In this document: piece by piece, positions 2,236-18,603 of the stretch | Layout of the letters: each line of letters begins with the position of its first letter | Numbering within the stretch: the stretch's first letter is position 1 | Assembly: GCA_965649055.1 (NCBI GenBank) | Contig: CBFGJG010000029.1 | Coordinates: 1 to 22,825, forward strand | Source of the DNA: a candidate division WOR-3 bacterium | GTDB taxonomy: Bacteria > Hydrothermota > UBA3072 > B12-G15 | Direction of reading: 5' to 3' | DNA: 22,825 bases | Translations under genes and position numbers: made by a program | Notes under the pieces: generated by a model | The model's input: the letters and a program-made list of their open reading frames with translations, nothing else | Told to the model about the DNA's origin: nothing | Databases searched by the model: none

Positions 2236-2944
2236 ATTCTACTCCGTTTTTAAATATCTTAAAACCATCACCACCATTTTTTGCATCAGGTGTAGAATGC
2301 CTGAAAATATTCCTTTCAGGATGTGGCATTAGACCAAAAACATTTCCTGTTATATCAGTCATACCTGCAATATCGAATTCTGAGCCTGAAGGATTAAAAC
2401 CAACATATTTTAAGGCAATAAGTTCATTTTCAATTATTAGATTTCTTGAAGCATCATCCTTAAATATTACCCTGCCTTCCTTGTTAGCAACAGGAAGCGG
2501 TATTTCATCTATATCAAAAAGAAAAGGTGTTCTTTTACTAGACCTTTTTACTTTTATCCATCCGTCATAAAACATACCAATTTTATTCGTGGTCAAGGTC
2601 ATAATCTGTTCGTCTGTTATTCCGGGTATTAAACCTGTCTTAACAAGTATCTGAAAACCATTACATATACCGATTATTAATCCTCCTCTATTGATAAACT
2701 CTTTCAATTCATTAAACAAAAAATTTTTTAGCAATATTGAAAAAACCTTCCCTGCACCAAGGTCATCTCCAAAAGTAAAACCACCCGGAATTGCTACAAT
2801 CTGAAATTCTTTAATCTTTTCCCTATTCTCTATAAGGCTTTTTATATATATGTTTTCAACAGATGCACCAGCTTTAATGAATGCAAATTCTGTTTCTCTA
2901 TCACAGTTTGTTCCCGGACCTCGCAGGTTTAGAACCTTTACCAT
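2225..2944 (-). CDS. purQ: Phosphoribosylformylglycinamidine synthase glutaminase subunit
   Basis: PGTNCD, PGGFTFGDDLGAG, GICNGFQILV (catalytic Cys) and GLMPHPER (His/Glu of the triad); adjacent to purL. Confidence 0.96.
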   Translation of the reverse strand: MVKVLNLRGPGTNCDRETEFAFIKAGASVENIYIKSLIENREKIKEFQIVAIPGGFTFGDDLGAGKVFSILLKNFLFNELKEFINRGGLIIGICNGFQILVKTGLIPGITDEQIMTLTTNKIGMFYDGWIKVKRSSKRTPFLFDIDEIPLPVANKEGRVIFKDDASRNLIIENELIALKYVGFNPSGSEFDIAGMTDITGNVFGLMPHPERNIFRHSTPDAKNGGDGFKIFKNGVEYFK

Positions 2945-5715
2945 TTTATTCCTTCCCTGTATATTTTATATACATCACTGATATTTAATGAAATTATTTC
3001 TCTTTTATCTTTAAAACACTTTATGTAATCTCTTATTGTTTTCCCAATTTTAATAAATGGAAGGCCTTGGAAAAATCTTTCGAATTCATCACTTTTATCC
3101 TTATCAACTTCGACAATAAATCTTGAATTTGATTCGCTGAATAAAAAAACAAAAGGATTTATTTGAGGAGCCAATTTTATCTCAGCACCTATTCTATTTG
3201 CAAAACACATTTCTGATAAAGAAACAATTAATCCACCATCTGAAATATCATGGATTGACTTGAATAAATTCCTTCTTATTCCATTTCTAATTCTCAAAAG
3301 TATATCCCTTGCAAAATCTGTATTTACCCTTGGGACCACACCGGATATATTTATTATTTTCGAGATCTGAGAACCGCCAAATTCCTCTTTTGTTTCTCCA
3401 ATCAGGTATATGAGATTATTCTCTTCCTTAAAATCGGAACTACAAATATTTTCACTATCTATTACAGATATTGCTGAAATTAACAATGTCGGCGGTATTG
3501 AGATTAAATCCTTATCAATCTTATATTTATTATTTAAACTATCTTTACCTGAAATAAAAGGAACACGATAGTATTTTGCAAAATCATAACAACCTTTTGC
3601 AGTCAATAATAGGTCTCCTAATACATATTCGTCTTCAACATCACCAAAACAAAAATTATCAAGTATAGCACATTTTTCTATATCCCCACCACAAGAAACA
3701 TTATTCCTTAAAGCTTCATCTATACAAGAAGCTGCCATCCAGTAAGGATTTATCTTACCAAAATTCGGATTTATTCCATTTGATATCACCAAAGCCTTAT
3801 TGGAATCAAGTAAAGGCTTTACTACTGCCCCATCCTGTGGTGAAGGATTCATTGGTTTTAACACACTTCCACCCTGAACCTCATGGTCATATTGTCTAAT
3901 AACCCATTCTTTACTTGCAATATCTGGTAGGGAAATCAATTTCAAAAACAATTCCTCATAATCTTCTGTATCAGGGATTTCTGTTATTGATTCTCTTTCT
4001 CTTATCTTAGCATTCAATACCCTCTTCGGTATACCATTATGCAAGAAATCCATATCAAGTTCACAAACCTTTTTTTCATTATAGTATAATTTTAATTTTT
4101 TATCATCTGTAAACTTTCCTAATACTGTTGCTTCAACATCTTCCTCCTTAAAAATTTTAATAATCCTGTCTAAATTTTTGTAATCTACTCCAAGAACCAT
4201 CCTTTCCTGAGATTCTGATATCCATATCTCAGTATATGATAATCCCTTATATTTCAAAGGGACCTTTTCAAGATGAACTTCTGCACCTGTGTCTTTCCCC
4301 ATCTCACCTATTGCAGAAGACAAACCACCTGCTCCACAATCAGTAATACTCTTTATCAATCCTTCATCTGTTGCCTTAAGGATACAATCCAGCATCTTTT
4401 TTTCTTCGATTGGATTTCCTATCTGAACAGCGGTTATTGACTTTTCAAAAGATTCATCATCAAGTTCTTTTGATGAGAATGTAGCACCATGAATACCATC
4501 CCTTCCTGTCCTACCACCAACAAGGAGAATTATATCCCCGGGCTCCACCTTCTTTTCAATATCTTTTTTCTTTATAATCCCAACACTACCACAAAAAACA
4601 AGTGGGTTATATAGAAAATCATCACTGAATATTATTGCACCATTCAATGTAGGAATACCCATTCTATTTCCATAATCCGCAACACCTTTTACGACACCTC
4701 TTATAATCCTTCTTGGTGGAAGATTAGGTGATTTTGAATCTGGATTAGGGAAACAAAAGATATCAGTGTTTGCAATTGGTTTTGCACCTTTCCCAGTTCC
4801 AATAGTATCCCTTATAACACCACCTATACCTGTTCCAGCACCACCATAAGGTTCAATCGCAGAAGGATGATTGTGCGTTTCGACCTTAAAAGTTACACCA
4901 TAATCTTTGTCGAATTCTATAACACCGGCATTATCTTTAAATACTGAAAGACAGATCTTCGAAGCGATTTCATCTGTTGCCTTCTTTATATAATCCTTAA
5001 AAAGAGAACCTTTATTTTCACCATTTAAAATAATATCTGCTTTAAAAGTTTTATGATAACAATGCTCACTCCAAGTTTGTGCTATTGTCTCAAGTTCACA
5101 ATCACTTGGATTCCTTCCCAAATCCACAAAATACTTCTTTATTGCCTTCATTTCTTCAAGTGATAAAGAAAGAACACCTTCTTTTGAAATCTTCAATAGT
5201 TCGTCATCTTTAGCATATAATATAGGAACTTCTATATATTTAAAATTATAATCCTGAACATATATAAATACCCTTTCTTCTTCTTCAATAACATCTTCTA
5301 TAACAGGATTTGACAGGATACTTTTTATAAGATATTCTTTTTCTTCCACTTTAATTTTACCTTTTATGTTATATCTTTTCCCTGTTCTTGCATTTTCAAC
5401 TTTAAGATTTAATGTATTACATATGTTGAGAAGGGTCTCTCCTGTTGAATCAAAAACAGATGGTTTAAAAGTGATAAGTATTGAATTGTCGAATCTCTTA
5501 AACGAATCGTTAATTATGTAATCTTCTATAACCGGGTCAACAATTATATTTTTAGCGATAAAATCTGCATCATTGTAAGAAATATTTCCTTTTATAAAAT
5601 AAACATCAACAACCTCTATATTATCAACATTTATACCGGAAAATGCAGCAAGTGTTTTTAATTCATTGCTTTCTCCCAATCCAAATTTTTTCGAAACCTC
5701 GATCTTATAAATCAT
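2938..5715 (-). CDS. purL: Phosphoribosylformylglycinamidine synthase synthetase subunit with N-terminal PurS-like extension
   Basis: WSEHCYHK, KVETHNHPSAIEPYGGAGTGIGGVIRD, GRDGIHGATFSS, DCGAGGLSS, SESQERM, QYDHEV, ISGKDSL and HDISDGG motifs. 925 aa, with ~150 extra N-terminal residues ending in DPVIE / NPVIE repeats. Confidence 0.96.
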   Translation of the reverse strand: MIYKIEVSKKFGLGESNELKTLAAFSGINVDNIEVVDVYFIKGNISYNDADFIAKNIIVDPVIEDYIINDSFKRFDNSILITFKPSVFDSTGETLLNICNTLNLKVENARTGKRYNIKGKIKVEEKEYLIKSILSNPVIEDVIEEEERVFIYVQDYNFKYIEVPILYAKDDELLKISKEGVLSLSLEEMKAIKKYFVDLGRNPSDCELETIAQTWSEHCYHKTFKADIILNGENKGSLFKDYIKKATDEIASKICLSVFKDNAGVIEFDKDYGVTFKVETHNHPSAIEPYGGAGTGIGGVIRDTIGTGKGAKPIANTDIFCFPNPDSKSPNLPPRRIIRGVVKGVADYGNRMGIPTLNGAIIFSDDFLYNPLVFCGSVGIIKKKDIEKKVEPGDIILLVGGRTGRDGIHGATFSSKELDDESFEKSITAVQIGNPIEEKKMLDCILKATDEGLIKSITDCGAGGLSSAIGEMGKDTGAEVHLEKVPLKYKGLSYTEIWISESQERMVLGVDYKNLDRIIKIFKEEDVEATVLGKFTDDKKLKLYYNEKKVCELDMDFLHNGIPKRVLNAKIRERESITEIPDTEDYEELFLKLISLPDIASKEWVIRQYDHEVQGGSVLKPMNPSPQDGAVVKPLLDSNKALVISNGINPNFGKINPYWMAASCIDEALRNNVSCGGDIEKCAILDNFCFGDVEDEYVLGDLLLTAKGCYDFAKYYRVPFISGKDSLNNKYKIDKDLISIPPTLLISAISVIDSENICSSDFKEENNLIYLIGETKEEFGGSQISKIINISGVVPRVNTDFARDILLRIRNGIRRNLFKSIHDISDGGLIVSLSEMCFANRIGAEIKLAPQINPFVFLFSESNSRFIVEVDKDKSDEFERFFQGLPFIKIGKTIRDYIKCFKDKREIISLNISDVYKIYREGIKW

Positions 5716-6623
5716 ATAAATCCTCTTGTGTTTTGAAGGTGTCCTCTAAATTTACTTGCAATTCTATATACTTCTAAATACTCTTCTCTTTTCAAAAATC
5801 TGTTTATTTCATCAAATTCCATTGCTTTGTAATATGGATAATACTGGTCCATCAAACTTATATATGTATTTTTTGAAACTTCATTGTACAAAAAATTTAA
5901 AGAGTCAACCGTTCCGCTAATATTATTGGGAAGAACAAGTAGCCTTACAAGTAAACCTTTTCTTGCAACTCCATCTTCCATGACTAAATCACCAACCTGT
6001 CTATACATTTCTTTTATTGCATTTCTATTATATTTGGCATAATTTTTTACATCTGAAAATTTTTCACCATTTTCATTTGAACTGTATCTCATATCAGGCA
6101 TATAAATATCAACTATTCCATCAATCAGTTTTAATGTGTCAACTTTTTCATAACCGAAGGTATTATACACAATTGGGATATTTAATCCATCTTTTTTTGC
6201 AATAAAAATTGCATTAACTATTTGTGGAATAAAATGTGTTGGTGTAACAAGGTTAATATTATGCGCACCTTTAATCTGTAATTCAAGCATAATAACTGAA
6301 AGTTCTTCAACACTTACATAGTGTCCTTCACAGAACTGTGATATTGAAAAATTCTGGCAGTAAACACATCTTGAAGGGCATCCTGAGAAGAATACTGTTC
6401 CAGAACCATTCCTACCTGAAACCGGTGGTTCTTCTCCAAAATGCAGATGAAAAGATGAAATCTTCAATCTTGAATCGCTATTACATTTTCCTTTTTCTCC
6501 CTTATTTCTATTAACCTTACACTCATTTGGGCATAAAACACACCTATCAAGAATCTTATTTAATTCTTCTATCCTCTTTTTAAAAACAAGGTCATCTATT
6601 CTCAAATAACCACTTATAAACAT
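5712..6623 (-). CDS. Radical SAM protein, PflX-like family
   Basis: CxxxCxxC (CPSRCVYCQN), N-terminal CVLCPNECKVNR..GKC, HFGEEPPVSG, NINLVTPTH, DIYMPD and MDQYYP. Confidence 0.88.
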   Translation of the reverse strand: MFISGYLRIDDLVFKKRIEELNKILDRCVLCPNECKVNRNKGEKGKCNSDSRLKISSFHLHFGEEPPVSGRNGSGTVFFSGCPSRCVYCQNFSISQFCEGHYVSVEELSVIMLELQIKGAHNINLVTPTHFIPQIVNAIFIAKKDGLNIPIVYNTFGYEKVDTLKLIDGIVDIYMPDMRYSSNENGEKFSDVKNYAKYNRNAIKEMYRQVGDLVMEDGVARKGLLVRLLVLPNNISGTVDSLNFLYNEVSKNTYISLMDQYYPYYKAMEFDEINRFLKREEYLEVYRIASKFRGHLQNTRGFI

Positions 6624-6716: not shown

Positions 6717-6935
6717 ATGGAAAAGGAAGTTCAAAGGGTTCTTGAAAGAATAAGAAGTATTTTAAGAAGGGATGGTGGGGATATAAGACTTATAAGTGTA
6801 AAAGATGGCATTGTTAAGGTAAGGTTTGAATACGCTTGCAGAGGTTGTCCATCAATGAATGATACTTTAAGAAATATTGTTGAAAAAGAAATAAAAAGAG
6901 AAATCCCTGAGATTAAAAGAGTTGAAGCAGTTTAA
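6717..6935 (+). CDS. NifU C-terminal domain (Nfu-type) Fe-S carrier protein
   Basis: 72 aa, IRSILRRDGGDIRL...ACRGCPS (Nfu CxxC); has RBS and promoter. Confidence 0.9.
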   Translation: MEKEVQRVLERIRSILRRDGGDIRLISVKDGIVKVRFEYACRGCPSMNDTLRNIVEKEIKREIPEIKRVEAV

Positions 6936-8506
6936 TACCTGAAACTGCTCCCACCAATAAATTCCCTCAATATTGAAGTAGGTGGAATTTCATCTTCAGA
7001 TATTGGAAGGAAATGATTCAAGAAATTTAGCAATCTCAATGCTTCACAATAATATTCATCATCATAAGTTATAGACCTTAAAGGAGTTTCAACATAATTC
7101 TTTAAAACTGCAAGTTCATAAACAAGTGAGGAATTGAACATAACATCTGCGTTTTCTTGGAATTTGAAGATATGTTCTTCTTCGCCCTTTATTACACTCT
7201 TCCATCTTGCAAGTGTAACAGCGGGTGGATTCCCGCGAAATAAAGTATCCCTAAAAATCCTTCTTATCAGTCTTACATCCCTTGTTGGTATTCTGTTCAG
7301 GCTATTGATATTAAGTTGAGTCAATGCGCTAACATATATTTTAAATTTTAATTCTTCTTTTATTGACTCTGTTAAAAGAGGATTCAATGAATGTAATCCT
7401 TCAATAATTATAACCTCATCCTTTTCAAGTTTCATTTTATTACCATTCCATTCTCTTTTTCCCTTTTTAAAATTAAATGTTGGAATTTCAATTTCCTCTC
7501 CCTTTATCAGACTCGTAAGGTGTTTATTAAAAAGGTCCAAATCCAACGCTTTTATAGAATCAAAATAATAAGCACCTGTTTCATCTCTTGGTGTCTTATC
7601 TCTATCAACAAAATAATCATCAAGACCTATCACCTTTGGTTTTATTCCGTTTACTCTGAGATGTACACCAAGCCTCTTTGAAAAAGTTGTCTTACCAGAA
7701 GAACTTGGTCCAGCTATAAGTATTATCTTTGATTTTCTTTTAGTAATTTCGTCTGCAATATAAGCAATCTTTTTTTCATGAAAAGACTCTGCTACCTTTA
7801 TTATATCAGATATTCTGTTGGAAACTATAGCGTCATTCAATTCTCCAACACTTCCAATTCCAAGTATTTCAGCCCATTGATTTGATTCGTTATAGGTATT
7901 CAGCAATTTCGTCCTTTTTTCTATCTTTGATAGCCTGAAAGGATCTTCAGATGATGGCAAAATAATAAGGAATCCATTATCAAGTTCTTTTATGTGAAAA
8001 ATCTTTATAAATCCAGTTGAAGGTAGTAACGGTCCTGCAAAATATCTCATATAATTATTAAGGCAATAGATTGGAATAAATTCTTTTGAAAGGTATTTTA
8101 TAGTATTAAAATCTTCTATGCTCCCATCCTTCTTAAAGATGTTCATAGCCTCTATCTTGGATACCCTTGTTTCAACAATTCTAACATCATCTTTTATGAC
8201 TTTTAGCATCTCTTTCTTTACTTCTCTAAGGTCGAGTTTCCCTTTTACAATTTCTCCAAATAATGCCCCACCAAATGAATGCTCTATCTTAATTGTGCAA
8301 TTATGTTTATATGCTATATAAGAAAAAAGAAATGATAAAGTCCTTTCATATGTTCTCACACCTTCTCTATGAGACATATCAATCAGTTTGAGGGAGCCAT
8401 ATGATGGTATATAAGAACCAAGACCAGTATAGATATTATCTACAAGTGCAAGTGTAGTTGGATATTTAATATCTTTCAAAATATTTATAACATTCTTTTC
8501 ATTCAT
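6932..8506 (-). CDS. Long-form nucleoside/uridine kinase family protein with ThrRS-like N-terminal region
   Basis: Walker A IAGPSSSGKTT, LDDYFVDR, IIEGLHSLNP, RLIRRIFRD, FNSSLVYEL and SILREFIGGS, typical of the ~550-aa Udk-like family. Confidence 0.88.
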   Translation of the reverse strand: MNEKNVINILKDIKYPTTLALVDNIYTGLGSYIPSYGSLKLIDMSHREGVRTYERTLSFLFSYIAYKHNCTIKIEHSFGGALFGEIVKGKLDLREVKKEMLKVIKDDVRIVETRVSKIEAMNIFKKDGSIEDFNTIKYLSKEFIPIYCLNNYMRYFAGPLLPSTGFIKIFHIKELDNGFLIILPSSEDPFRLSKIEKRTKLLNTYNESNQWAEILGIGSVGELNDAIVSNRISDIIKVAESFHEKKIAYIADEITKRKSKIILIAGPSSSGKTTFSKRLGVHLRVNGIKPKVIGLDDYFVDRDKTPRDETGAYYFDSIKALDLDLFNKHLTSLIKGEEIEIPTFNFKKGKREWNGNKMKLEKDEVIIIEGLHSLNPLLTESIKEELKFKIYVSALTQLNINSLNRIPTRDVRLIRRIFRDTLFRGNPPAVTLARWKSVIKGEEEHIFKFQENADVMFNSSLVYELAVLKNYVETPLRSITYDDEYYCEALRLLNFLNHFLPISEDEIPPTSILREFIGGSSFRY

Positions 8507-10019
8507 TGACCATTATCACCCTTTCTTTATAAAAATATGCCACATTGTTTCTGCATATCTCTTTTACTTTATACATTGCAATATCAGCATTTCTAATTAA
8601 TTCTTCTTTGTTCTTTGCATAGTTGGGAAATGAAGACACACCAAAACTTGCCCTTATTCTAACCCTGCATTTTTTTGATATCTCAAAATCTTTTTCAGCA
8701 AGCTTTTTTCTCAAAAATTCGGCAAAATTAATGGCATCCATCAATTCAGTCCTTGGTAGTATCAGTATATACTCATCGCCACCATACCTAACTGATATAA
8801 CACCATCAGGAAGATATTTTTTTATCCTCTTTGCAACAAGTTGTAATGTTTTACTGCCTACAAGATGGTCATATTCATCATTAACCCATTTAAAATGGTC
8901 AATATCCATAAAGATTAATGAGACTGGGTATTTTTTCTCTTTTGCATCAATTAGTATTTTTTCAAGTGGTTCTTCAATAAAGCGATAGTTGTAAAAACCC
9001 GTTAAATCATCTTTATATGCAAGTTCTAATATTCTATTATATAATTTTGCGTTTTCAATTGCTATTGTGAGCTGGTTTGCAACCTGAAGAAGAACATCAA
9101 CCTCTTCTTTATTAAAATCATAATTTTTTAAACTCCCAATATCAATAACTCCAAGTATGTTACCTCTTTTCTTCAGTGGAAGGTATAATTCAGATTTTGT
9201 CTTTAAAATACTTTTATCTTCAGGTATATTATTTACAATAATAAAACTTTTTTCTTTGCGGATATTTTTAATGACATCTTTCTGTTCGAAATAATTTATG
9301 TCAATTTTAAATCCTTTTGAAATAGAAAAATCACCAATCAATCTATCATCTGTAAAGACACCTATATAAACATAATGATAGTTAAAGGCATCTCTTATAA
9401 TCTCTGCACTTTTTTTTAATAATTTACTAATTTCAAGAAATGATGTTATATTTCTGTTTATTCGAGAGATTAAGGTTAAATATTTTATCTTCTGATTAAG
9501 TTTTTTCACAAGTGTTGCATTTTCAAAAGCAAGTGCTGCTTGTTCAACATAAGTTTTAACTAATTTTAAGTCATTATTACTAAATTCTGATTCTCCCTTC
9601 TTATTTATAATTTCAATGACACCAACGAGATTTCCTTTACTGATCATCGGTATTGCAAGTATGGATTTTGTTTTGAATTTACTTTTCTTATCAATATCGG
9701 AAAAAAACCTTGGATCTTTACTTACATCGGGAACCAGAATGGGTTTTTTGTTCTTCACAACCCAACCTACTATTCCTTTATCCTTAGGTATTCTTAAACC
9801 TGTTAATTCTTCCTTTTTTTCACCAAAAACATCATAGAATATCAATTCATTCGTAGATTCATCTATAAGAAATAATGTCCAAGCTTCAGCCTGTATAATT
9901 TCAGATATATTCAGCATTATTATATGTAGAATTTCATCAATTGTTTTCCTTGGTGAATTTATAGCTTTTATTATCTCTGCGGCTATTTCGAATTCAGATC
10001 TCATCTTTTCTTTCTTCAA
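8499..10019 (-). CDS. GAF-GAF-GGDEF dinucleotide cyclase; Hypr-type (candidate 3',3'-cGAMP synthase)
   Basis: Two GAF domains, then DDLTGFYN, MDIDHFKWVND, HLVGS, RYGGDEY, SFGVS and ADIAMYKVK. The track start is TTG at 10019; in-frame ATG at 10004 is an alternative. The domain call is firm; product specificity is inferred. Confidence 0.9.
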   Translation of the reverse strand: MKKEKMRSEFEIAAEIIKAINSPRKTIDEILHIIMLNISEIIQAEAWTLFLIDESTNELIFYDVFGEKKEELTGLRIPKDKGIVGWVVKNKKPILVPDVSKDPRFFSDIDKKSKFKTKSILAIPMISKGNLVGVIEIINKKGESEFSNNDLKLVKTYVEQAALAFENATLVKKLNQKIKYLTLISRINRNITSFLEISKLLKKSAEIIRDAFNYHYVYIGVFTDDRLIGDFSISKGFKIDINYFEQKDVIKNIRKEKSFIIVNNIPEDKSILKTKSELYLPLKKRGNILGVIDIGSLKNYDFNKEEVDVLLQVANQLTIAIENAKLYNRILELAYKDDLTGFYNYRFIEEPLEKILIDAKEKKYPVSLIFMDIDHFKWVNDEYDHLVGSKTLQLVAKRIKKYLPDGVISVRYGGDEYILILPRTELMDAINFAEFLRKKLAEKDFEISKKCRVRIRASFGVSSFPNYAKNKEELIRNADIAMYKVKEICRNNVAYFYKERVIMVNE

Positions 10020-12486
10020 GAATAACTTGATATACTATTTTTATTCTTCCTTTTTCCGTAATAAAATCTCCATTCTCCTGAATATCAAACTCAAAATTAG
10101 CAGGATTTATTACAAGCTGTTTACTCTTATCAAGTTCATCAATATAATAAATTCCGGCTCTTTTTATCCTGCATCCTTCAAAATAGTACTCTCTTTCATC
10201 CTCTCTCATTTTTAGAATTTGCAAAAGTTTATCCGAAATATCTTTTTCAGTCATTTTTGTTTCAAACTCCTTGAACAGAGAAAATCTTTCAACATTCAAT
10301 ATTATATTTATTAATGTAGTATGATCTATAAGAATAACAGACCTTTCCTTTGCTTTGCCGGATGAAAAGACACTTGCTTCGTGAACAAGAAAACCTGTAA
10401 TATCAGGATCACCAAAGGAATTTGGAGTAAATACCATATCTCTCTGAGGTAATCCACTGACAATTCCAACACCAAGTTTGAAAAGGGATTTAAATTCAGG
10501 TGGTAGAAGTGCATATGTCACTCCTTCATGTAATAGTTCTTTTTCCGCAATTTCACCGAACCATTCCCTATAGTTTACGTAATTCTCCTTTACAAAATCT
10601 TCTGCAGATTGAACGATACCAATAGCAGTTTTTAAAGCCTTGTATCCAGAATTTGGGTCTTTTAATATTGCAAATTCATCCTCAACTGCTGTAGAAAATC
10701 TTATACTTAGATTTTCTTTTAACATAAAAGTTTTAAAGATATCATTATACAATTGATTTGAATTACCGCCAAACCATATAATTCCGCCATCGCCTATTTC
10801 TTTAAGTAAAAAACCTCCACCTTTTTTAGCATTATTCAATACAGCATAATTAAATTTATTCATTATCATTCTTTGTTTTTCTGCATCTTTTAGGCGATGA
10901 GCCATAAATGTTGAACCCCTTATATCATATATCAAAACAGTTACGACAGAAGAAAAATTTCTCGTTAGAATATTTCCTATTTTCCTATTTTTTTCAATAA
11001 TTGCAGCAGAAATCTTCGGTGTTATTTTACTTGATTTTGAAAATCTATGGAATTTACCAGAAGGTAAAAGCTCAATTCCAACAAGATGTAATGCATCCCT
11101 TGCATCAAGTAATGTTTTAGGATTTTGAGAATCTACTCTTGGTGGCCATACGAAAAGTAAATCCGATACTATCTTGTAAGAAACCATAGGCTCAAAGATG
11201 TTTTCAAATATTGCACGGTAATTTTTTAAAACCTTAACAGGGTCAATAATAACATTTTTCTTTGAACGCTCAACAAGTGTTTTGAATCTATCCGGGTCCT
11301 TTTTATATTCTCTTAGAAATATCTTCTGAATATTCTTCAACACATTGGGCTCTATTATCTCAAAATATTTATCAGATTTCCAGTTATTTATCACAAAGTC
11401 CTCTATCTCCCAATCAGAACCTTTAGGTAAAAATGCCTTGAGTTTTTCTGATGTTATATTCTGTAATTCTCTATTTTCCTGTATACTTCTTCCCACCTCA
11501 AGCATCTTTGATGTATATCCTCTGAAAAGTTTTATGTGGAATTTAATCCTCTTCATCATATTCAGTATTGCATCCTGAGTTCCGTCTATTGCCTTACTTA
11601 TATCCCCTTTTAAACTTATATCAAGAACATCTTGCAATTCATGTAAAGATTTTTCGATAATATTTTTTGTTTCGGTTTTAACCTTTAATGATAGCATATC
11701 AAGTTCTTTATCTCTTTCCCTTAGAATTTTTTCATTTTGTTTGGCTTTTAAAGACACTAATTTTGCAAATTTTACTTGGGTGTCTTCTGAAAGAGGAAGG
11801 AATTGTTCGAATGGGAAACTGTTTAAGTCTGAAAAATCACTTATCTGTGTTGATTCGAGTAATTTAATTATATGTATGTCTTCCCTTTTGATAAAACTAT
11901 CCATTATAATTTTATTTACCTCACGGAAGATTGATGCATCAAAATCATAATTTTTCAATAATCTATTAATATCTTCGAGTGTTACACTTTTTATATTAAC
12001 ACCTAAGAAGTAAGGTCCTTTGTGAAAAAAATCAAAAACCTGTTTTTCTGTTGCACTTAAATGCTGGGTGGACTCAACAAAAATCTTTAATATTTTAGAA
12101 CCAAAATTTAAGGATTCATCAATAGAACTAAATATAGGTGGAAATACTTTCATAAGGAATGCCTCAAATAATAAAGCGAATTCGGATGAAAATGAAAGTA
12201 TATTATTGTAAACATCACTTACAATCTTTGAAACTTCTTCTGCACTTCCGGAAACTGCAAAAAGTTTCATTTTTTCCTCTGTTGATAATTCAACAACTAT
12301 ACTTTCGTCAAAGGTTGATAAAAACTTGATAAAAAAATCTGGAAGTTTTCTTATATCAAAGCATCTTTCTAATAACTTTTTATTCTTTAGGAATGTATCA
12401 CTTTTTACAAGGTTTTTTTTTAAATTTATTATATAATTACTTGATAACTCTGCGGAAGATTCTATATCAGATAGTTTTACTATCAT
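9994..12486 (-). CDS. 830-aa soluble protein: helical N-terminal region plus divergent class III nucleotide-cyclase-like C-terminal domain
   Basis: VTVLIYDIRGST (D521), KEIGDGG (K562, D566), LGVGIVSG, PDITGFLVHEAS (D695) and ILID, in the order of class III cyclase motifs; paralogous to the 21269 gene. Confidence 0.7.
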   Translation of the reverse strand: MIVKLSDIESSAELSSNYIINLKKNLVKSDTFLKNKKLLERCFDIRKLPDFFIKFLSTFDESIVVELSTEEKMKLFAVSGSAEEVSKIVSDVYNNILSFSSEFALLFEAFLMKVFPPIFSSIDESLNFGSKILKIFVESTQHLSATEKQVFDFFHKGPYFLGVNIKSVTLEDINRLLKNYDFDASIFREVNKIIMDSFIKREDIHIIKLLESTQISDFSDLNSFPFEQFLPLSEDTQVKFAKLVSLKAKQNEKILRERDKELDMLSLKVKTETKNIIEKSLHELQDVLDISLKGDISKAIDGTQDAILNMMKRIKFHIKLFRGYTSKMLEVGRSIQENRELQNITSEKLKAFLPKGSDWEIEDFVINNWKSDKYFEIIEPNVLKNIQKIFLREYKKDPDRFKTLVERSKKNVIIDPVKVLKNYRAIFENIFEPMVSYKIVSDLLFVWPPRVDSQNPKTLLDARDALHLVGIELLPSGKFHRFSKSSKITPKISAAIIEKNRKIGNILTRNFSSVVTVLIYDIRGSTFMAHRLKDAEKQRMIMNKFNYAVLNNAKKGGGFLLKEIGDGGIIWFGGNSNQLYNDIFKTFMLKENLSIRFSTAVEDEFAILKDPNSGYKALKTAIGIVQSAEDFVKENYVNYREWFGEIAEKELLHEGVTYALLPPEFKSLFKLGVGIVSGLPQRDMVFTPNSFGDPDITGFLVHEASVFSSGKAKERSVILIDHTTLINIILNVERFSLFKEFETKMTEKDISDKLLQILKMREDEREYYFEGCRIKRAGIYYIDELDKSKQLVINPANFEFDIQENGDFITEKGRIKIVYQVILEERKDEI

Positions 12487-13795
12487 CCGAAATTCCGTTA
12501 AATCTAAACCTGCTTATTTTAACAGATGGACAGATTGTGTGCGAGGGGGTTGGTATGCTATAAAAATCGTTCCCTGTATGAACCTCTATTTCGGAAGATA
12601 TAGATTCAATATTTGAAAATGCCTCTACCATACTCTGAGTAAATCTAAGATTCTTTAGCGGCTTTACTATCTTCCCGTTTTTAATAAGAAAAGTTCCGTA
12701 TCTTGTCATTCCGGTTAGAGTTACATCAAAAGGTCTTACTGTATTTACATAATGAAAATTAGACACATATATACCATTATCTACAGATGAAACTAAATCT
12801 TCTAAGCTACTATTACCTTTTTCCATTACAAGATGGTTTGGAATTGGTCCTGAAACTATCCCTCCACTACTATGACCTGTTGTATCCTTACCTATCTTTT
12901 TACCATAGTATCTATCACAGGTCACGTTTTTACATATTCCTTTTTCAATGATAGTTACCTTTTTTCTTTCAATACCCTCCTCGTCAAAATGGAAAGGAAA
13001 TCCAGATTCATAGTCTTTATCATCATAGATTGTAACATTTTCAGAAAAAACCTTTTTATTTTCTTGGAAGAATGATGTTTTCTCATAAACAGCTTTTGCA
13101 TTAAATGAAAGATATCCCATATGACCTAATATCGAAGCAACTGCAGGGCTTTCAAGTATAACAGTATATTCACCAGGTTCAATAATATGTGGTTCACTCT
13201 TGAACATTATTTTCTTTTTTAAATCATCCAATTTATCAATGTCAAAATCAAGCGTATTAAATGATTTAAATGCTGAATGCTTATTATTTATATAAATAAT
13301 GCTGACATAGTCCATTGGTATAGATTGAAAGAGTCTTAAACCTGCTGAATTCCCAATTGCCCAGGTAACATTACCTGACTTAAGAATGCCATAAGCTGAA
13401 TACTTACCGGACTTCTTAATTATCTTCTTTACAACATTAAAACATAATTTAACATCTATATTTCTATTTGTTTCTTCAGTAGATGTGGCTGTTGAACTAC
13501 TCACAAAGGGCGGCAGGTCATCAATTGGCTTTGAAACCCTTGCTATCTTTCTTGCCTCTTTAATTGCATTTTTTATTAATTTAGTCTCAAGATATGGTGC
13601 GACTGATGAAGCAATTCGATTTTTATTTATCACTTTAACAAAAACCTTAACATCATTCAAAATTGAATTTTGATGGATAAAAGAATTTGCATATCTTATA
13701 AAAATAGACTCATCCATTGAAAATGTTAGTTGAACATCATCTGTTCCTTTTAATACCTTGTCAAAAATTTCAAATACTTTTTCTTTGTTTATCAC
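12467..13795 (-). CDS. TldD/PmbA family protein, TldE/PmbA-like
   Basis: RYANSFIHQN, EPGEYTVILESPAV, FDEEG, TGHS, TGMTRYGTFLIKNG and NLRFTQS; no HExxGH zinc motif. Confidence 0.88.
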   Translation of the reverse strand: MINKEKVFEIFDKVLKGTDDVQLTFSMDESIFIRYANSFIHQNSILNDVKVFVKVINKNRIASSVAPYLETKLIKNAIKEARKIARVSKPIDDLPPFVSSSTATSTEETNRNIDVKLCFNVVKKIIKKSGKYSAYGILKSGNVTWAIGNSAGLRLFQSIPMDYVSIIYINNKHSAFKSFNTLDFDIDKLDDLKKKIMFKSEPHIIEPGEYTVILESPAVASILGHMGYLSFNAKAVYEKTSFFQENKKVFSENVTIYDDKDYESGFPFHFDEEGIERKKVTIIEKGICKNVTCDRYYGKKIGKDTTGHSSGGIVSGPIPNHLVMEKGNSSLEDLVSSVDNGIYVSNFHYVNTVRPFDVTLTGMTRYGTFLIKNGKIVKPLKNLRFTQSMVEAFSNIESISSEIEVHTGNDFYSIPTPSHTICPSVKISRFRFNGISDDSKTI

Positions 13796-15078
13796 ATCTT
13801 CCTCCTTAAAAATTCACCTTCATTATAAACAATGTTTCCACCAACAACGGTCATTAAAACCTTACCTTTCATCTTCCAGCCAATAAATGGGGAATTTTTT
13901 GATAATGAATAAAAATTCTCTTCTTTTACAACCCATTCCTTCTTTAAATCAACAATAGTAAAATCTCCAAAACCACCATCTTTTATCTCTCCGTATGGAA
14001 CATCAAAAATCATTGCTGGTTTTGAAGATAGATGACTTATAAGGGACTTAAGAGGTAATAACCCTTCATTTACAAATTTTGTAAAAAGAGAAGAAAAAGA
14101 TGTCTCAAGCCCTGTAATTCCAAACGGAGCTAAAGGAAATTCAAGTTCTTTTGTATACAACGGATGCGGTGCATGGTCTGTAGCGATAGCGTTAACAAAT
14201 CCTTCTTTCAAAGCCTTTAGTAACGCTTCACAATCACTTTTCTTTCTTAATGGTGGATTCATTTTGAAATTTGAATCAGTCAACCTCAAATCATTCTCGG
14301 AAAGTATTAAGTGATGCGGTGTAACATCAAATGTAACATTACAACCAGAATCTCTACCAAATTTAATTATATCTAATGAAGTTTGGGTACTGATATGTGC
14401 AAAATGTATTGGGGAATTCAAATACCTTGCAATCTGAATATCCCTCGAAACAATAATGCTTTCGGATATATCGGGAATACCTTTAACACCATATGAAATT
14501 GATATAAAACCTTCGTTTATTATTCCATTATCTGATAAATCTTTATCTTCAGGATGTTCTATAAAAATTGCCTTTGTGTTTTTTAAATATTCAAGGACTC
14601 TCCTAACAATTTTTGAACTTTTTATTGTATTTCCATCATCTGTGAATGCCTTGCATCCTATCTCATACATCTCTTTCATCTCTGTCAATTTCTCACCTGC
14701 TCTACCAATGGTTGCTGCACCAACAGGATAAATTCTCAAAAGACCAACTTCTTCTGCCCTTCTAAGAATAAAACTTACCATTCCTTTATTATCAATAGGT
14801 GGATTGGTATTTGGGAAAACAAATATTGAAGTGTATCCTCCTGAAACTGCCGCTTTACTTCCACTATCAAAATTTTCTACATCTTCACCACCAGGCTCCC
14901 TTATGTGTGTGTGTATATCGATAAACCCCGGAAATATATACAGCCCTTTCCCGGATATAGAGATTTCAGGAATACCGATTTCCTTCTTTACAATGCCATT
15001 TTCAATATATATATTACCAATCTCATCAATATTATTCAAAGGGTCAAAAAGATTTACATCCTTTATAAGTAATTTCAT
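13792..15078 (-). CDS. pyrC: Dihydroorotase (type I, long form)
   Basis: PGFIDIHTHIREPG, PNTNP, FTDDG, EHPED, HFAHIST, KMNPPLR and ATDHAPH metal/substrate motifs; follows pyrB. Confidence 0.95.
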   Translation of the reverse strand: MKLLIKDVNLFDPLNNIDEIGNIYIENGIVKKEIGIPEISISGKGLYIFPGFIDIHTHIREPGGEDVENFDSGSKAAVSGGYTSIFVFPNTNPPIDNKGMVSFILRRAEEVGLLRIYPVGAATIGRAGEKLTEMKEMYEIGCKAFTDDGNTIKSSKIVRRVLEYLKNTKAIFIEHPEDKDLSDNGIINEGFISISYGVKGIPDISESIIVSRDIQIARYLNSPIHFAHISTQTSLDIIKFGRDSGCNVTFDVTPHHLILSENDLRLTDSNFKMNPPLRKKSDCEALLKALKEGFVNAIATDHAPHPLYTKELEFPLAPFGITGLETSFSSLFTKFVNEGLLPLKSLISHLSSKPAMIFDVPYGEIKDGGFGDFTIVDLKKEWVVKEENFYSLSKNSPFIGWKMKGKVLMTVVGGNIVYNEGEFLRRKM

Positions 15079-15998
15079 TCTTCACCCCTTGGAAGTCCAC
15101 TTAAAAGATAAATTATTGCCATTCTTACTGCTACACCATTGGTTACCTGTTGCAAAATTAACGACCATGGTCCATCAGCAACATCTGGTGCGAGTTCAAC
15201 TCCTCTATTTACAGGTCCTGGATGCATTATAACAACATCTTTTTTAGCAAATTTTTGAAGAACTTCTTTTGTAACAGAATAAAATCTAATATACTCATTT
15301 ATTGTTGGTATGAAACAGCCATCCTGTCTCTCTTTCTGTATTCTTAAAACATAAACAACATCCTTATTTACTATTGCTTCTTTCAAACAATATGTAATAT
15401 CAACCCCGTAATTAATAAAATATTCAGGCAAAAGTGTAGGTGGACCACATAAAGTTATCTTGGCTCCCATTTTTTTCAATGCAAGTATCAATGACCTTGC
15501 AACCCTTGAATGGAGTATATCACCGATTATAGAAACATTTAAATCTCTTAAATCACCAAACTTTTCAACCATACTTAGAATATCCAATAAAGCCTGAGTA
15601 GGATGTTCGTGTGAGCCATCACCTGCGTTGATAACAGAAGCGTTTATTCTTTCAGAGAGATAATGTGGAGCAAAAGGAACACTGTGTCTTATAACAACAA
15701 TATCAACCTTCATTGCTTCAATATTCCTTGCAGTATCAAGTAATGTTTCACCTTTCTCAACGCTTGAAAAAGACTTGGATATGTTAACTGTGTCAGCTGA
15801 AAGTCTTCTCTCAGCAATTAAAAATGAATTAAGAGTCCTTGTGCTTGGCTCAAAGAAAAGATTGGCAACGGTTAAACCCCTTAATGTTGGAACCTTCTTT
15901 ATTTTCCTTTCAAGAACAAACTTCATACTTTTTGCTGTCTCAATAATCTGATTAATATCTTCGAGTGTTATATCTTCAATACCAAGTAGATGCTTCAT
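15075..15998 (-). CDS. pyrB: Aspartate carbamoyltransferase catalytic subunit
   Basis: FFEPSTRT, KGETLLDT, NAGDGSHEHPTQALLD, GDILHSRVARS, LRIQKER and MHPGP. Confidence 0.97.
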   Translation of the reverse strand: MKHLLGIEDITLEDINQIIETAKSMKFVLERKIKKVPTLRGLTVANLFFEPSTRTLNSFLIAERRLSADTVNISKSFSSVEKGETLLDTARNIEAMKVDIVVIRHSVPFAPHYLSERINASVINAGDGSHEHPTQALLDILSMVEKFGDLRDLNVSIIGDILHSRVARSLILALKKMGAKITLCGPPTLLPEYFINYGVDITYCLKEAIVNKDVVYVLRIQKERQDGCFIPTINEYIRFYSVTKEVLQKFAKKDVVIMHPGPVNRGVELAPDVADGPWSLILQQVTNGVAVRMAIIYLLSGLPRGEE

Positions 15999-16540
15999 AA
16001 TTTATCATCCTTGCGAATTATGAATACACCTTCTTTACCATCAACCTCTTTAATTAAAACTGATACATTCTCATTTTCACCACATTCAACTATCTTTCCT
16101 GTAAAGTCTGGACAAATTGGTAATTCCCTTCCTCCTCTATCAATGACAACCAAAAGAAATATTCTTTTAGGTCTTCCAAAATCTATTAATTCGTCTATTG
16201 CTGCTCTTATTGTTCTTCCGGTATAAAGAACATCATCAACAAGCAAAACCACTTTACCGTCAATCGAAAAATCTATTTCAGTTGTTCCTATCAAAGGTTT
16301 TGGGCCAACAGTAGACAAATCATCTCTATAGAGTGTGATATCAATAGCACCAAAATCAATTTTTAAATTTGTCTTTGTTTTCAAAATCCTCATTATTCTT
16401 TTAGCTATTATATCACCTCTATTTTTTATACCTATTATGCAGATATGTTCGTATTTATCTTTAAAACTATTTATAACATCCATAGAAAGGTTTGTTATAA
16501 TCCTTTCTAATTCTTCATTATTGAAAATTATTTTTTCCAT
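15995..16540 (-). CDS. pyrR: Bifunctional pyr regulator / uracil phosphoribosyltransferase PyrR
   Basis: GIKNRG, DITLYRDDL, LLVDDVLYTGRTIRAA (PRPP motif) and DRGGRELPI; directly upstream of pyrB. Confidence 0.95.
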   Translation of the reverse strand: MEKIIFNNEELERIITNLSMDVINSFKDKYEHICIIGIKNRGDIIAKRIMRILKTKTNLKIDFGAIDITLYRDDLSTVGPKPLIGTTEIDFSIDGKVVLLVDDVLYTGRTIRAAIDELIDFGRPKRIFLLVVIDRGGRELPICPDFTGKIVECGENENVSVLIKEVDGKEGVFIIRKDDKL

Positions 16541-18603
16541 TTAAACTGAATCGGTATTGTTTGTTCCATCTTTGTTGGAACACCGTTAACCTTTCCAGGG
16601 ATAAACTTCCATTTCATCGCTGTGTTTATTGCTTCCTGATCACATACACCACCACCAAAACTCTTTACAACTTCTGCTTTAATAACATTTCCATTTTCAT
16701 CTATCAAAACCTTTACAAAAACTGTCCCTTCAATCCCCAATCTTTTTGCAGCATCAGGAATTGTAGGCATAGCAACTTTTTCAGGTTTTGGGAGTTCTAT
16801 CTGTTCCTGTTTTTGTTCAACTATAGTTGTCTCTTTCTTCTCTTCCTTTACCTCTTGAACAGGCTGTTCGGTTGTGGTAGCCACTGGTTTTTCTTCCTTT
16901 TTCTCAGTAGGTTTTATTGTATCTACAGGCTGTGATAATAATTTTCTTGTCAAAACATCTTCTGCCGTAACAGTCGTTACTATCTTCTTCACTGGCTGTA
17001 TATTTGAAGTTTCCCTGAAATGTTTACCAAGTTCACGAAATGCAACTTCAGTTGAAGGTCTTGAGGATGTTGGAATATATATTTCATCAATTTTTTCAGA
17101 AAGTAATCTTTTATCCATCCTGTCAATACCTTCAATACCGTCCCTAACAAATGAGATATTTGAAGCAACATAGAGGAATGTGTAAGGAATATCTTCAGCA
17201 ATAATCCTCTGAAATTCAGACCATATCTTTTTACTTTCCTTTCTATCAAGTGTTAATATACCTTTCTCAATAAGTTGGTCTATCTGTGGATTATTATATT
17301 TTACAAAATTGTAACTTCCTGTAGAGCTCCATATTGGTGCAGGTTCAAACTCTTTTGAGATATTCCACGAAAGGATAAAAGCTGAAAAATCTCCTTTTTC
17401 AAGTCTTGTAATAAATTCAAGTGTATTTAATTTTTTTACACTTGACATTACACCTATTTTCTTTAAATAACTCGATATCATTTCAGCAACTGCGACTTTG
17501 ATAATATCATTTTGATCAACAAGTATCTCTATATTTAGATTATCAAAATACTTATCCCTATTTTTATCAATATATCCAAGTGATTTGATTATTTCGATAG
17601 CCTTATCCGGATTATATCCAATTGTAAGACCTTTCACCCCATCATCAAACGCCCAGTGATTCTGAGTTATCGGACCGTAGGAAAGTTCTCCGGAACCTTG
17701 TAAAATTTCCTGTATTATCTTCTGTCTATCTATTGCCATAGTTAATGCAGTTCTTAGCCTTTTATCTTTAAACTGACTTAGATTCCAACCAATAAATGTA
17801 TAACTATTGCCTGGTTCGATTATTGTCTTATAATTTGGAAGATTAACTTCTTTTATCCTGTCCGGTGGAAAGTTTAATACAATATCAATATTTCCTAATT
17901 TCATCTCATCTATCAACTCATCAATTGATAATGGAAACCAGAATACAATTCTATCTGCTAATGGTCTACCATAAATATAATTTTCATTGGCAACCAGTTC
18001 TATGTATTCACCTTTTTTCCATTCAACAAGCTTATATGGTCCTGAAGTTATTTCAGGAATTTCTTTAAATTTTTGTTTTCCCAGCTCTGACTCCAAAAGT
18101 TTCGCAGGTAAAGGGAATATATTTGAATTTAATATTTCATCTGCGTATATCATTGTAAATTCAAACTGGATTCCATTATTACCTACGGGTTTTACATTCT
18201 TGATATATTTCAATCTTCCAATGAGAGGGTAATTATTTTTCGGATCTTTCATCACCTCAAATGTTTTTACAACATCTTTTGGTGTTATTGGTGTTCCATC
18301 ACTCCATTTACTATTTTTATCTATATAGTAAGTAATCTTCGTAAGGTCTTCAGAAAATTCCCATCCTGATGCGATACAGGGCATAACTTTTCCATTCTTT
18401 TCAATCTTATGCAAGGGAGAAAAAAGAAGATATGTTACAGGTGAGTAACCTGTAATTGGTGGATAAATTGGATTCAGGTTTGTAGGTTCATCAAGACTTG
18501 CAATTATTAGCGTTCCACCTTTTTCACCTTTATACGTAAACTTCTCTTCCTTAACACATGAGAATAAACCAAAAACAAAAAAAACTATCCAAAGTTTTTT
18601 CAT
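16528..18603 (-). CDS. Lipoprotein: family 5 (OppA/DppA-like) solute-binding domain fused through an E/K/P/T-rich linker to a TonB C-terminal domain
   Basis: Lipobox MKKLWIVFFVFGLFSC; SBP5 motifs KWSDGTPITPKDV, SGPYKLVEW and LRTALTMAIDRQ; C-terminus AKRLGIEGTVFVKVLIDENGNV..WKFIPGKVNGVP..IPIQF is TonB_C-like. Confidence 0.85.
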   Translation of the reverse strand: MKKLWIVFFVFGLFSCVKEEKFTYKGEKGGTLIIASLDEPTNLNPIYPPITGYSPVTYLLFSPLHKIEKNGKVMPCIASGWEFSEDLTKITYYIDKNSKWSDGTPITPKDVVKTFEVMKDPKNNYPLIGRLKYIKNVKPVGNNGIQFEFTMIYADEILNSNIFPLPAKLLESELGKQKFKEIPEITSGPYKLVEWKKGEYIELVANENYIYGRPLADRIVFWFPLSIDELIDEMKLGNIDIVLNFPPDRIKEVNLPNYKTIIEPGNSYTFIGWNLSQFKDKRLRTALTMAIDRQKIIQEILQGSGELSYGPITQNHWAFDDGVKGLTIGYNPDKAIEIIKSLGYIDKNRDKYFDNLNIEILVDQNDIIKVAVAEMISSYLKKIGVMSSVKKLNTLEFITRLEKGDFSAFILSWNISKEFEPAPIWSSTGSYNFVKYNNPQIDQLIEKGILTLDRKESKKIWSEFQRIIAEDIPYTFLYVASNISFVRDGIEGIDRMDKRLLSEKIDEIYIPTSSRPSTEVAFRELGKHFRETSNIQPVKKIVTTVTAEDVLTRKLLSQPVDTIKPTEKKEEKPVATTTEQPVQEVKEEKKETTIVEQKQEQIELPKPEKVAMPTIPDAAKRLGIEGTVFVKVLIDENGNVIKAEVVKSFGGGVCDQEAINTAMKWKFIPGKVNGVPTKMEQTIPIQFKWKK

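Follow-up and report, generated by a model that had tools for sequence, protein, structure and literature searches.

We analysed a stretch of 22,825 nucleotides, the whole of which we call the window, from contig CBFGJG010000029.1 of an uncultured hot-spring bacterium. The window has a G+C content of about 30% and carries on its minus strand a run of genes in which each overlaps the next, in the order pyrR-pyrB-pyrC-tldE-cyclase-like-GGDEF-kinase. The run was read from the list of open reading frames (ORFs) and its genes were named with Pfam and NCBIfam, which also place valS in the minus-strand run. Our subject is the pair formed by the cyclase-like gene, referred to as type A, and the GAF-GAF-GGDEF gene directly downstream. 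The type A gene occupies 9994-12486 (minus strand) and encodes 830 aa from an ATG at 12486 to a TGA at 9994-9996, as given by its ORF and translation. The GAF-GAF-GGDEF gene occupies 8499-10004 (minus strand) and encodes 501 aa from an ATG at 10004, a start taken from its orthologues. A preliminary description of the window had proposed that the two genes form a nucleotide second-messenger module within the pyr operon, in which an atypical class III cyclase-like protein is coupled to a Hypr-type GGDEF protein. We found that the pair recurs across a phylum of uncultured bacteria.

The junctions around the pair are tight. On the sequence-level reading the tldE stop at 12467 falls 20 nt within the 830-aa gene. 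The TGA of the 830-aa gene lies 11 nt into the GGDEF gene if the latter is read from its ATG, and the TGA of the GGDEF gene at 8499 lies 8 nt within the kinase gene, which starts with an ATG at 8506. An alternative TTG start at 10019 would lengthen the GGDEF gene to 8499-10019 (minus strand, 506 aa) and the overlap with the cyclase-like gene to 26 nt; the orthologues begin near the position of the ATG and not of the TTG. The gene coordinates, the overlaps and the gene order of the preliminary description all held at sequence level. At other loci the stop of the cyclase-like gene commonly overlaps the start of the GGDEF gene or is separated from it by 0-11 nt, and the GGDEF gene is predicted to be translationally coupled to the cyclase-like gene.

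The 830-aa protein is not recognised by any Pfam or NCBIfam family, even at E 10, and a search of the PDB with the single sequence returned a faint match to CyaB (3r5g, E 0.41). Its nature became apparent from structure and profile comparisons. An AlphaFold2 model built from an alignment of 92 relatives reached a predicted local distance difference test score (pLDDT) of 87.7 and a predicted template modelling score (pTM) of 0.80. The top Foldseek matches of this model were all class III cyclases (3r5g with E 1.4e-6 and a template modelling score of 0.67 on the target, 1wc3, 2w01 and 1azs). When the model was compared with 48,161 chains using VIA-align, chain B of CyaB (3r5g_B) ranked first with Z 17.0 and a root-mean-square deviation of 2.6 Å over 184 of 196 residues, covering model residues 514-826. 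Cyclases or cyclase-like proteins filled the top 21 rows, among them adenylyl, guanylyl, uridylyl and cytidylyl cyclases, and GGDEF domains appeared only at Z values of about 12.

Profile comparisons led to the same family. A profile of the domain family found CyaB in the PDB at E 2.4e-5, and alignment with hhalign to 13 canonical PF00211 domains gave a probability of 98.8 and E 4.8e-17 over 171 columns. The same alignment located two insertions in the type A domain, at about 575-612 and 631-668. Searched against 1.84 billion representative proteins, the family profile gave 44 matches at E<=1e-10, followed by a gap and then by weak matches confined to about the first 100 positions of the profile; of the 14 weak matches that were checked, 13 carry PF00211. 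Fold and profile thus agree on the atypical class III identity proposed in the preliminary description, invisible as it is to Pfam and NCBIfam. By predicted fold and by profile, the C-terminal domain of type A (residues 513-826; 10009-10950, minus strand) is a deeply diverged homologue of the class III nucleotidyl cyclases. The type A protein is cytoplasmic.

The first ~500 residues of type A form an all-helical region with a long hairpin, which was modelled alone with a pLDDT of 91.3. Foldseek gave no match to this region at E<=0.001. VIA-align returned generic helical hairpins only, over residues 233-354 and with Z of about 10, which is below the meaningful level for helical proteins. No sensor domain was recognised in these ~500 residues, of which the parts outside 233-354 were barely covered by the comparison.

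In class III cyclases a pair of aspartates binds metal, and in adenylyl cyclases a Lys/Asp pair specifies adenine. The alignment of 92 family sequences contains 23 invariant columns, and the mapped ones lie at active-site positions. D521, K562, D566 and D695 occur in every one of the 92 sequences. In CyaB, D521 and D566 have their counterparts in the two metal-binding Asp, that of 'SDIRGFT' and that of 'GD'. K562 and D695 align with the substrate-specifying Lys/Asp pair, the former by the CyaB profile as well as by hhalign and the latter by hhalign only.

Most genomes that have the family carry two members. In the window the second member, type B, lies at 21269-22825 (minus strand), where its ORF is truncated at the 5' end by the end of the window; the full gene extends to contig position 23489 (L037:1273-3489) and encodes 739 aa. 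It belongs to no Pfam or NCBIfam family and stands between rplQ-like genes and valS. A quick, midpoint-rooted maximum-likelihood tree of the 92 sequences, for which a more careful search is unfinished, separates types A and B into two branches, each with a Shimodaira-Hasegawa-like approximate likelihood ratio support of 100. Every GGDEF-linked gene falls into type A. Type B genes occupy one of two sites: at 16 loci they stand directly upstream of type A in a B-A-GGDEF tandem, and otherwise they lie with ribosomal-protein genes on one side and valS on the other. At the latter site type B always follows genes of 118, 324, 213 and 124 aa, sizes that suggest rplQ-rpoA-rpsD-rpsK, and directly precedes valS. 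This placement is stable across several families and is an odd housekeeping spot for a signalling-type protein.

Types A and B share the invariant core and differ at catalytic positions. Position 702, where class III cyclases have the canonical Asn, is variable among the 60 type A sequences, whereas all 32 type B sequences have Arg there. Position 705, to which no canonical residue is assigned, is likewise variable in type A, and 30 of the 32 type B sequences have Asn at it. At position 670, a conserved Arg before the G-x-G strand, type A has Arg or Lys in all 60 sequences and type B has Gln in 31 of 32. The Asn...Arg motif of class III cyclases is thus absent in type A and appears as Arg...Asn in type B. 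Judging by the complementary residues and the tandem gene order, types A and B may form a heterodimer in which one active site is complete; type B would probably give this site its invariant Arg and Asn, and type A its conserved Arg/Lys. Such complementary paralogues recall the C1 and C2 halves of mammalian adenylyl cyclase. Within the type A clade, six aligned sequences have no adjacent GGDEF gene; they come mostly from one family, f10, and most of them have Asn702 and Lys705. The f10 helix 'INEAK', with these two residues, is nearer to the canonical cyclase motif.

The partner protein is readily recognised. Its GGDEF domain matches PF00990 at E 5.8e-36 and TIGR00254 at E 9.6e-44, and among solved structures the Hypr GGDEF domain of Geobacter GacA comes closest to it (6d9m, E 2.7e-26), compared with E 4.6e-22 for PleD. 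Hypr domains are marked by a Ser (Ser348 in GacA) in place of Asp, by GGDE[F/Y] and not GGEEF (the Goldilocks rule), and by a cross-dimer residue other than Arg, Tyr304 in GacA (PMC6456294). Replacement of the guanine-reading Asp (Asp344 in PleD, Ser348 in GacA) by Ser or Thr serves as a Hypr criterion (PMC6456294, PMC12943098). All three marks are present in the domain of the window (8547-9020, minus strand): 'DHLVGS', which supplies the Ser, aligns with 'GHLVGS' of GacA, the signature reads 'RYGGDEY', and 'FYNYRF', which supplies the Tyr, aligns with 'LFNYRY'. Among the nine GGDEF domains of the genome, eight have the canonical Asp and the partner is the sole exception. The specificity site holds Ser or Gly and never Asp in 46 of 46 readable partner orthologues, a count that leaves out one misaligned and unreadable row (L090), and in 5 of 5 orthologues from further families. 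At the cross-dimer position the orthologues have Y, S, A, T or V, and in no case R. The window protein has no RxxD inhibitory site (I-site), and distant orthologues have one. By all published sequence marks, the partner is thus assigned to the Hypr type of GGDEF proteins, the type associated with cyclic GMP-AMP (cGAMP).

Ahead of the GGDEF domain lie the GAF domains. The NKFDE motif is a mark of GAF domains that bind cyclic nucleoside monophosphates (cNMPs). The first domain, GAF-A (residues 27-164; 9528-9941, minus strand), is a Pfam GAF domain of the cNMP-binding type by similarity. It is present in all 39 aligned partner orthologues, in which N, K, F and D do not vary and have the spacing NK-x5-F-x3-D and the final Glu of the motif is Leu. 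The closest solved relatives of GAF-A are the GAF domain of Lcd1 (5w10, E 1.4e-24 over 151 residues) and those of CyaB2 (1ykd) and the phosphodiesterase PDE5 (E 1.8e-24), followed by the GAF domains of PDE10, PDE2 and PDE6. Structure 5W10 is that of Lcd1 (PMC11800159), which binds cAMP (10.1101/600031). The conserved GAF-A thus most resembles the cAMP/cGMP-binding GAF domains. Partner proteins have either the GAF-GAF-GGDEF architecture or one to two GAF domains behind an N-terminal stretch that looks receiver-like by eye only. Pfam and the alignment to GacA hence bear out the GAF-GAF-GGDEF architecture and the Hypr serine named in the preliminary description, and the nearest solved relatives agree with its assignment of the GAF domains to the PDE/CyaB type.

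We surveyed the gene neighbourhood of the cyclase-like family, as the preliminary description had called for. The carriers are uncultured metagenome-assembled genomes of candidate division TA06, Stahlbacteria, Edwardsbacteria, UBP2 and some Cloacimonadota. The family was found in 62 of the 151 sampled genomes of the phylum, in an all-or-none pattern by family. In a first survey a GGDEF gene stood directly downstream of the cyclase-like gene at 16 of 20 loci. A survey of 71 loci gave 51 paired and 10 unpaired loci, 7 loci with the valS-linked paralogue and 3 loci cut by contig ends, i.e. 51 of 61 informative loci were paired; related genomes enter these locus counts and are not independent samples, which tempers them. 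The pairing was also seen at 5 of 6 loci from further families, and the pair is present in 10 of the 12 families examined for type A. Of the other two families, f10 is without it, and in f13 the partner is located elsewhere in the genome. Pyr or tldE genes lie upstream at 19 of the 51 paired loci and are missing there at the other 32, where the flanks include ruvX-mltG, CBS/Na-H exchanger genes, smpB, trmD-rplS and more. Since the pairing mostly holds without the pyr genes, the gene pair is the conserved unit: it persists throughout the phylum, whereas its other neighbours all vary. The pyr context looks like a lineage-specific gene order of one part of the tree. The link to nucleotide-pool status drawn in the preliminary description is therefore weak, as pyr/udk genes accompany the pair only in these 19 of 51 loci. 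Because the neighbourhood survey was positive in all three samples, a functional link between the cyclase-like and GGDEF genes is very likely.

One alternative is that two unrelated genes are packed side by side in a compact genome, a caution that the preliminary description had itself raised, and that the GGDEF protein is an ordinary diguanylate cyclase. Genes do overlap throughout the window, and both paralogues sit amid housekeeping genes, namely pyr, valS and ribosomal-protein genes in the window and ruvX-mltG at other loci. Chance packing is nevertheless hard to reconcile with a pairing that survives changing flanks at the great majority of informative loci and recurs across the phylum far above chance, nor does an ordinary diguanylate cyclase fit specificity sites with Asp in 0 of 46 and 0 of 5 partners, compared with 8 of 9 GGDEF domains of the window genome. 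The tree and the family tallies do not show the loci to be near-copies of one lineage. We regard this explanation as extremely improbable, and chance adjacency is effectively excluded.

The survey also yielded several observations on the composition of the loci. No further constant genes of the module were found: the flanks differ in 8 distant loci, and only tldE recurs, in two lineages. The tldE-like gene stands directly ahead of the pair in the family of the window and in a distant lineage lacking pyr genes (L063-L066, L117), and it is absent in the intervening order. The TldE/PmbA-like peptidase might belong to the cassette as a third, facultative component. The f10 loci (L084, L087, L088, L089, L095, L104) have a lone type A gene after pyrC, without type B. 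Apparent internal stops in some orthologues proved unfounded. At both TGA-flagged loci the matches overrun the true stop (at L047 the ORF ends at 8478 and the match at 8484), and an orthologue flagged for TAG contained no internal stop on inspection.

The logic that best accounts for the pair has a precedent. In Myxococcus xanthus cAMP binds the GAF domain of GacB (MXAN_2643) and activates the protein with a half-maximal effective concentration of ~79 nM (bioRxiv 10.1101/600031). GacB resembles the partner in having an N-terminal cNMP-type GAF domain ahead of a GGDEF domain with the Hypr serine, and the proposed order of cyclic mononucleotide, GAF domain and cGAMP is identical. In the available part of that report no dedicated cyclase is described beside gacB, whose gene neighbourhood we did not search for, whereas the cyclase-like gene of the window overlaps the GGDEF gene. 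GacB is furthermore inhibited by cyclic di-GMP (c-di-GMP), whereas the window protein has two GAF domains and lacks the I-site, and many of its orthologues have Gly in place of Ser.

Our best explanation is that the pair constitutes a conserved two-enzyme nucleotide-signalling relay cassette of TA06/Stahlbacteria/Edwardsbacteria-type bacteria. In its full form we put this forward tentatively, as a reading that falls somewhat short of probable. The cyclase-like enzyme, probably acting as an A/B dimer, would form a cyclic nucleotide from ATP, most likely cAMP. This nucleotide would bind GAF-A and switch on the Hypr GGDEF domain, as cAMP does for Myxococcus GacB, and the activated domain would then produce 3',3'-cGAMP or a mixture of dinucleotides. 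In the lineage of the window the position behind pyrR-pyrB-pyrC may tie expression of the pair to the pyr operon, which would be a matter of local gene order and not of the core mechanism. As a relay the pair is plausible; its link to pyrimidines is weak.

Several observations weigh against this relay. With a cut-off as loose as E 10, PF00211 still matches neither the 830-aa protein as a whole nor the 318 residues at its C-terminal end. The mapping of catalytic residues follows from a profile alignment and a predicted model and not from a solved structure, and catalysis, ligand and product are all deduced from sequence and predicted structure. Where class III cyclases carry the canonical transition-state Asn and Arg on helix alpha-4 (VNxAxR), the type A protein of the window has H702 and V706. 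Position 702 is N in 26, D in 12, S in 10 and A in 8 of the 60 type A sequences, and position 706 is hydrophobic. Since the canonical Asn and Arg are missing, type A may be inactive by itself. About eight ordinary PF00211 cyclases in the window genome are possible sources of cAMP. In f10, 13 genomes have a single type A copy and no adjacent GGDEF gene, and in three genomes (G031, G037 and G009) the best GGDEF matches elsewhere in the genome are canonical. Because type A persists without a partner in f10 and in G009, its role cannot consist solely in feeding the partner GGDEF protein. About one third of the partners have Gly ('GHxxGG') instead of Ser at the base-reading position (L060, L063-L066, L068, L070-L073, L091-L094, L106, L117, L130-L133), and many have Asp ('VDD') for the base-contacting Asn; in the portions of the literature available to us we found no description of GGDEF variants with Gly for Ser or Asp for Asn. 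The provisional state of the A/B tree and the relatedness of the surveyed genomes count in the same direction. A structure prediction for the complex of type A residues 495-830 with the whole GGDEF protein scored 0.00, which is no verdict and speaks neither way.

The missing Asn and Arg are what one would expect if the cyclase-like protein were a non-catalytic ATP sensor or scaffold that controls the GGDEF protein by direct contact or shared localisation. The fold matches include a class III adenylyl-cyclase-like ATP-binding protein (6yii, so named by its PDB title) with Z 13.1. Overlapping genes would suit proteins made in fixed proportion, and the large helical N-terminus with its long hairpin could mediate assembly. 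The match to 6YII from P. aeruginosa, which has a cyclase fold but an incomplete catalytic set, is however weaker than those to true cyclases. The 23 invariant columns are held across two ancient paralogue groups, which is more than ligand binding usually requires, and the invariant Arg and Asn of type B could complete the site of a heterodimer. The cNMP-type GAF domain found in all aligned partners is, moreover, a sensor of small molecules. We consider a sensor or scaffold fairly unlikely.

Survival of type A without its partner in f10 and G009 would also be explained if both proteins were active and belonged to one regulon without being wired through the GAF domain. The cyclase would then make another product (for example cGMP, cyclic UMP or CMP, or a non-cyclic nucleotide) destined for other receptors, the GAF domain would sense an unrelated metabolite, and the GGDEF protein, which has Ser or Gly at its specificity site, would make an unspecified dinucleotide. 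The pyrimidine cyclases 7r65 and 8jsf are close fold matches of type A (Z 14.9 and 14.7), GAF domains bind many classes of ligands (10.1101/600031), and the Gly at the position of residue 348 and the Asn-to-Asp change at that of residue 339 point to a remodelled base pocket in many partners. On the other hand, the invariant Lys/Asp pair is by alignment the signature of adenylyl cyclases, no PADLOC (Pycsar) model matches, and the nearest solved relatives of GAF-A all come from cAMP/cGMP-regulated proteins. Adjacency in 10 of 12 families would furthermore be hard to obtain from co-regulation alone. We consider an unwired regulon unlikely. A bolder reading, in which the GAF domain does sense the cyclase product, holds that types A and B form a new kind of heterodimeric class III cyclase whose rearranged Arg...Asn helix yields a product other than plain cAMP, that the rebuilt pocket of the GGDEF domain (Ser or Gly for Asp, often Asp for Asn) yields a dinucleotide other than c-di-GMP and possibly undescribed for GGDEF enzymes, and that in the lineage of the window co-transcription with pyrR-pyrB-pyrC and the uridine-kinase-like gene lets pyrimidine supply set the signal; we judge it quite improbable. 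Separately, a role in Pycsar defence as a pyrimidine cyclase was rejected: neither paralogue nor the partner has a PADLOC family, the neighbours are GGDEF and housekeeping genes, and the fold match to 7r65 is weaker than those to adenylyl cyclases.

The proposed relay can be set beside further described systems. Geobacter GacA (6D9M/5VS9; eLife 2019, PMC6456294) has the Ser348, GGDE[F/Y] and Tyr304-type residues in common with the GGDEF domain of the window; GacA is regulated by a receiver domain, whereas the window protein would be regulated by its GAF domains. Leptospira interrogans Lcd1 shares the GAF-GGDEF architecture, and GAF-A aligns to its GAF domain (5W10). The cAMP-dependent Lcd1 is described as a canonical diguanylate cyclase (PMC12943098), whereas the enzyme of the window bears the marks of a Hypr domain; the likeness is one of overall alignment. 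On the cyclase side, P. aeruginosa CyaB (3R5G), Spirulina CyaC (1WC1) and the mammalian C1/C2 domains (1AZS, 1CJK) have the same fold as type A (Z 15.7-17), and class III adenylyl cyclases share with it, by alignment, the metal-binding Asp pair and the Lys/Asp pair. Type A differs from them in its failure to match PF00211, its two large insertions and its ~500-residue helical N-terminus of unrecognised fold. In the limited literature searched, by title or abstract, we found no description of this cyclase family or of a cyclase linked to a Hypr GGDEF protein. The preliminary description knew of no described system with this architecture. For the relay logic this no longer stands, since that logic was published for GacB (10.1101/600031); a dedicated, genetically coupled cyclase is undescribed in the portions of the literature that we consulted. 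What is new is therefore the dedicated, operon-coupled family of divergent cyclases, its two complementary paralogues and the partner subfamily with Ser or Gly.

The remaining genes around the pair were assigned with Pfam and NCBIfam and all lie on the minus strand. Directly upstream of the cyclase-like gene and overlapping it lies the gene of a TldE/PmbA-like metallopeptidase of the PmbA/TldD family (12467-13795), preceded by pyrC (13792-15078), pyrB (15075-15998) and pyrR (15995-16540), for which the ORFs were also used. The overlapping run extends upstream of pyrR to a gene at 16528-18603 that overlaps pyrR by 13 nt; it encodes 691 aa, in which an SBP_bac_5 domain (residues 72-430) is fused to a C-terminal TonB_C domain (614-688), a fusion kept in relatives within the order. 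The last gene of the run, of the uridine-kinase family (6932-8506; 524 aa from the ATG at 8506), follows the GGDEF gene throughout the order. Its product has an N-terminal extension of ~250 residues with a faint threonyl-tRNA-synthetase-like match (TIGR00418, E 1.5e-4, residues 89-207). A terminator-like hairpin at 6924-6951, just past this gene, is a consensus match only, and such sites are no commoner than in shuffled sequence. Rfam gave no match in the window at E<=0.1. The c-di-GMP-I riboswitch model gave no match genome-wide either, a result that is uninformative as the same model was silent in 14 of 14 control genomes.

Farther along the minus strand, a 303-aa radical S-adenosylmethionine protein of the activating-enzyme type (5712-6623) is encoded between purL and the kinase gene. 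The gene at 2938-5715 encodes a 925-aa phosphoribosylformylglycinamidine (FGAM) synthase in which a PurS domain (residues 79-142) is fused ahead of PurL, and purQ then overlaps it. On the plus strand, the 463-aa ORF at 132-1523 has only faint matches to putative surface-glycopolymer glycosyltransferase families.

Hypr GGDEF proteins and cGAMP signalling are known from few organisms, and in the portions of the literature available to us the sole activator is cAMP, for GacB. The conserved pairing points to an upstream enzyme of a Hypr-type GGDEF protein in an uncultured phylum, and the two genes can be assayed together. The cyclase family had gone unrecognised: it has no Pfam or NCBIfam model and, within 1.84 billion proteins, makes up ~44 clusters at 50% identity. 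It shows how far the catalytic core of class III cyclases can drift. The partners, divided as they are into those with Ser and those with Gly at the specificity position, offer a natural experiment on the substrate choice of GGDEF domains. If the A/B model is true, the two paralogues would parallel, in bacteria, the asymmetric C1/C2 arrangement.

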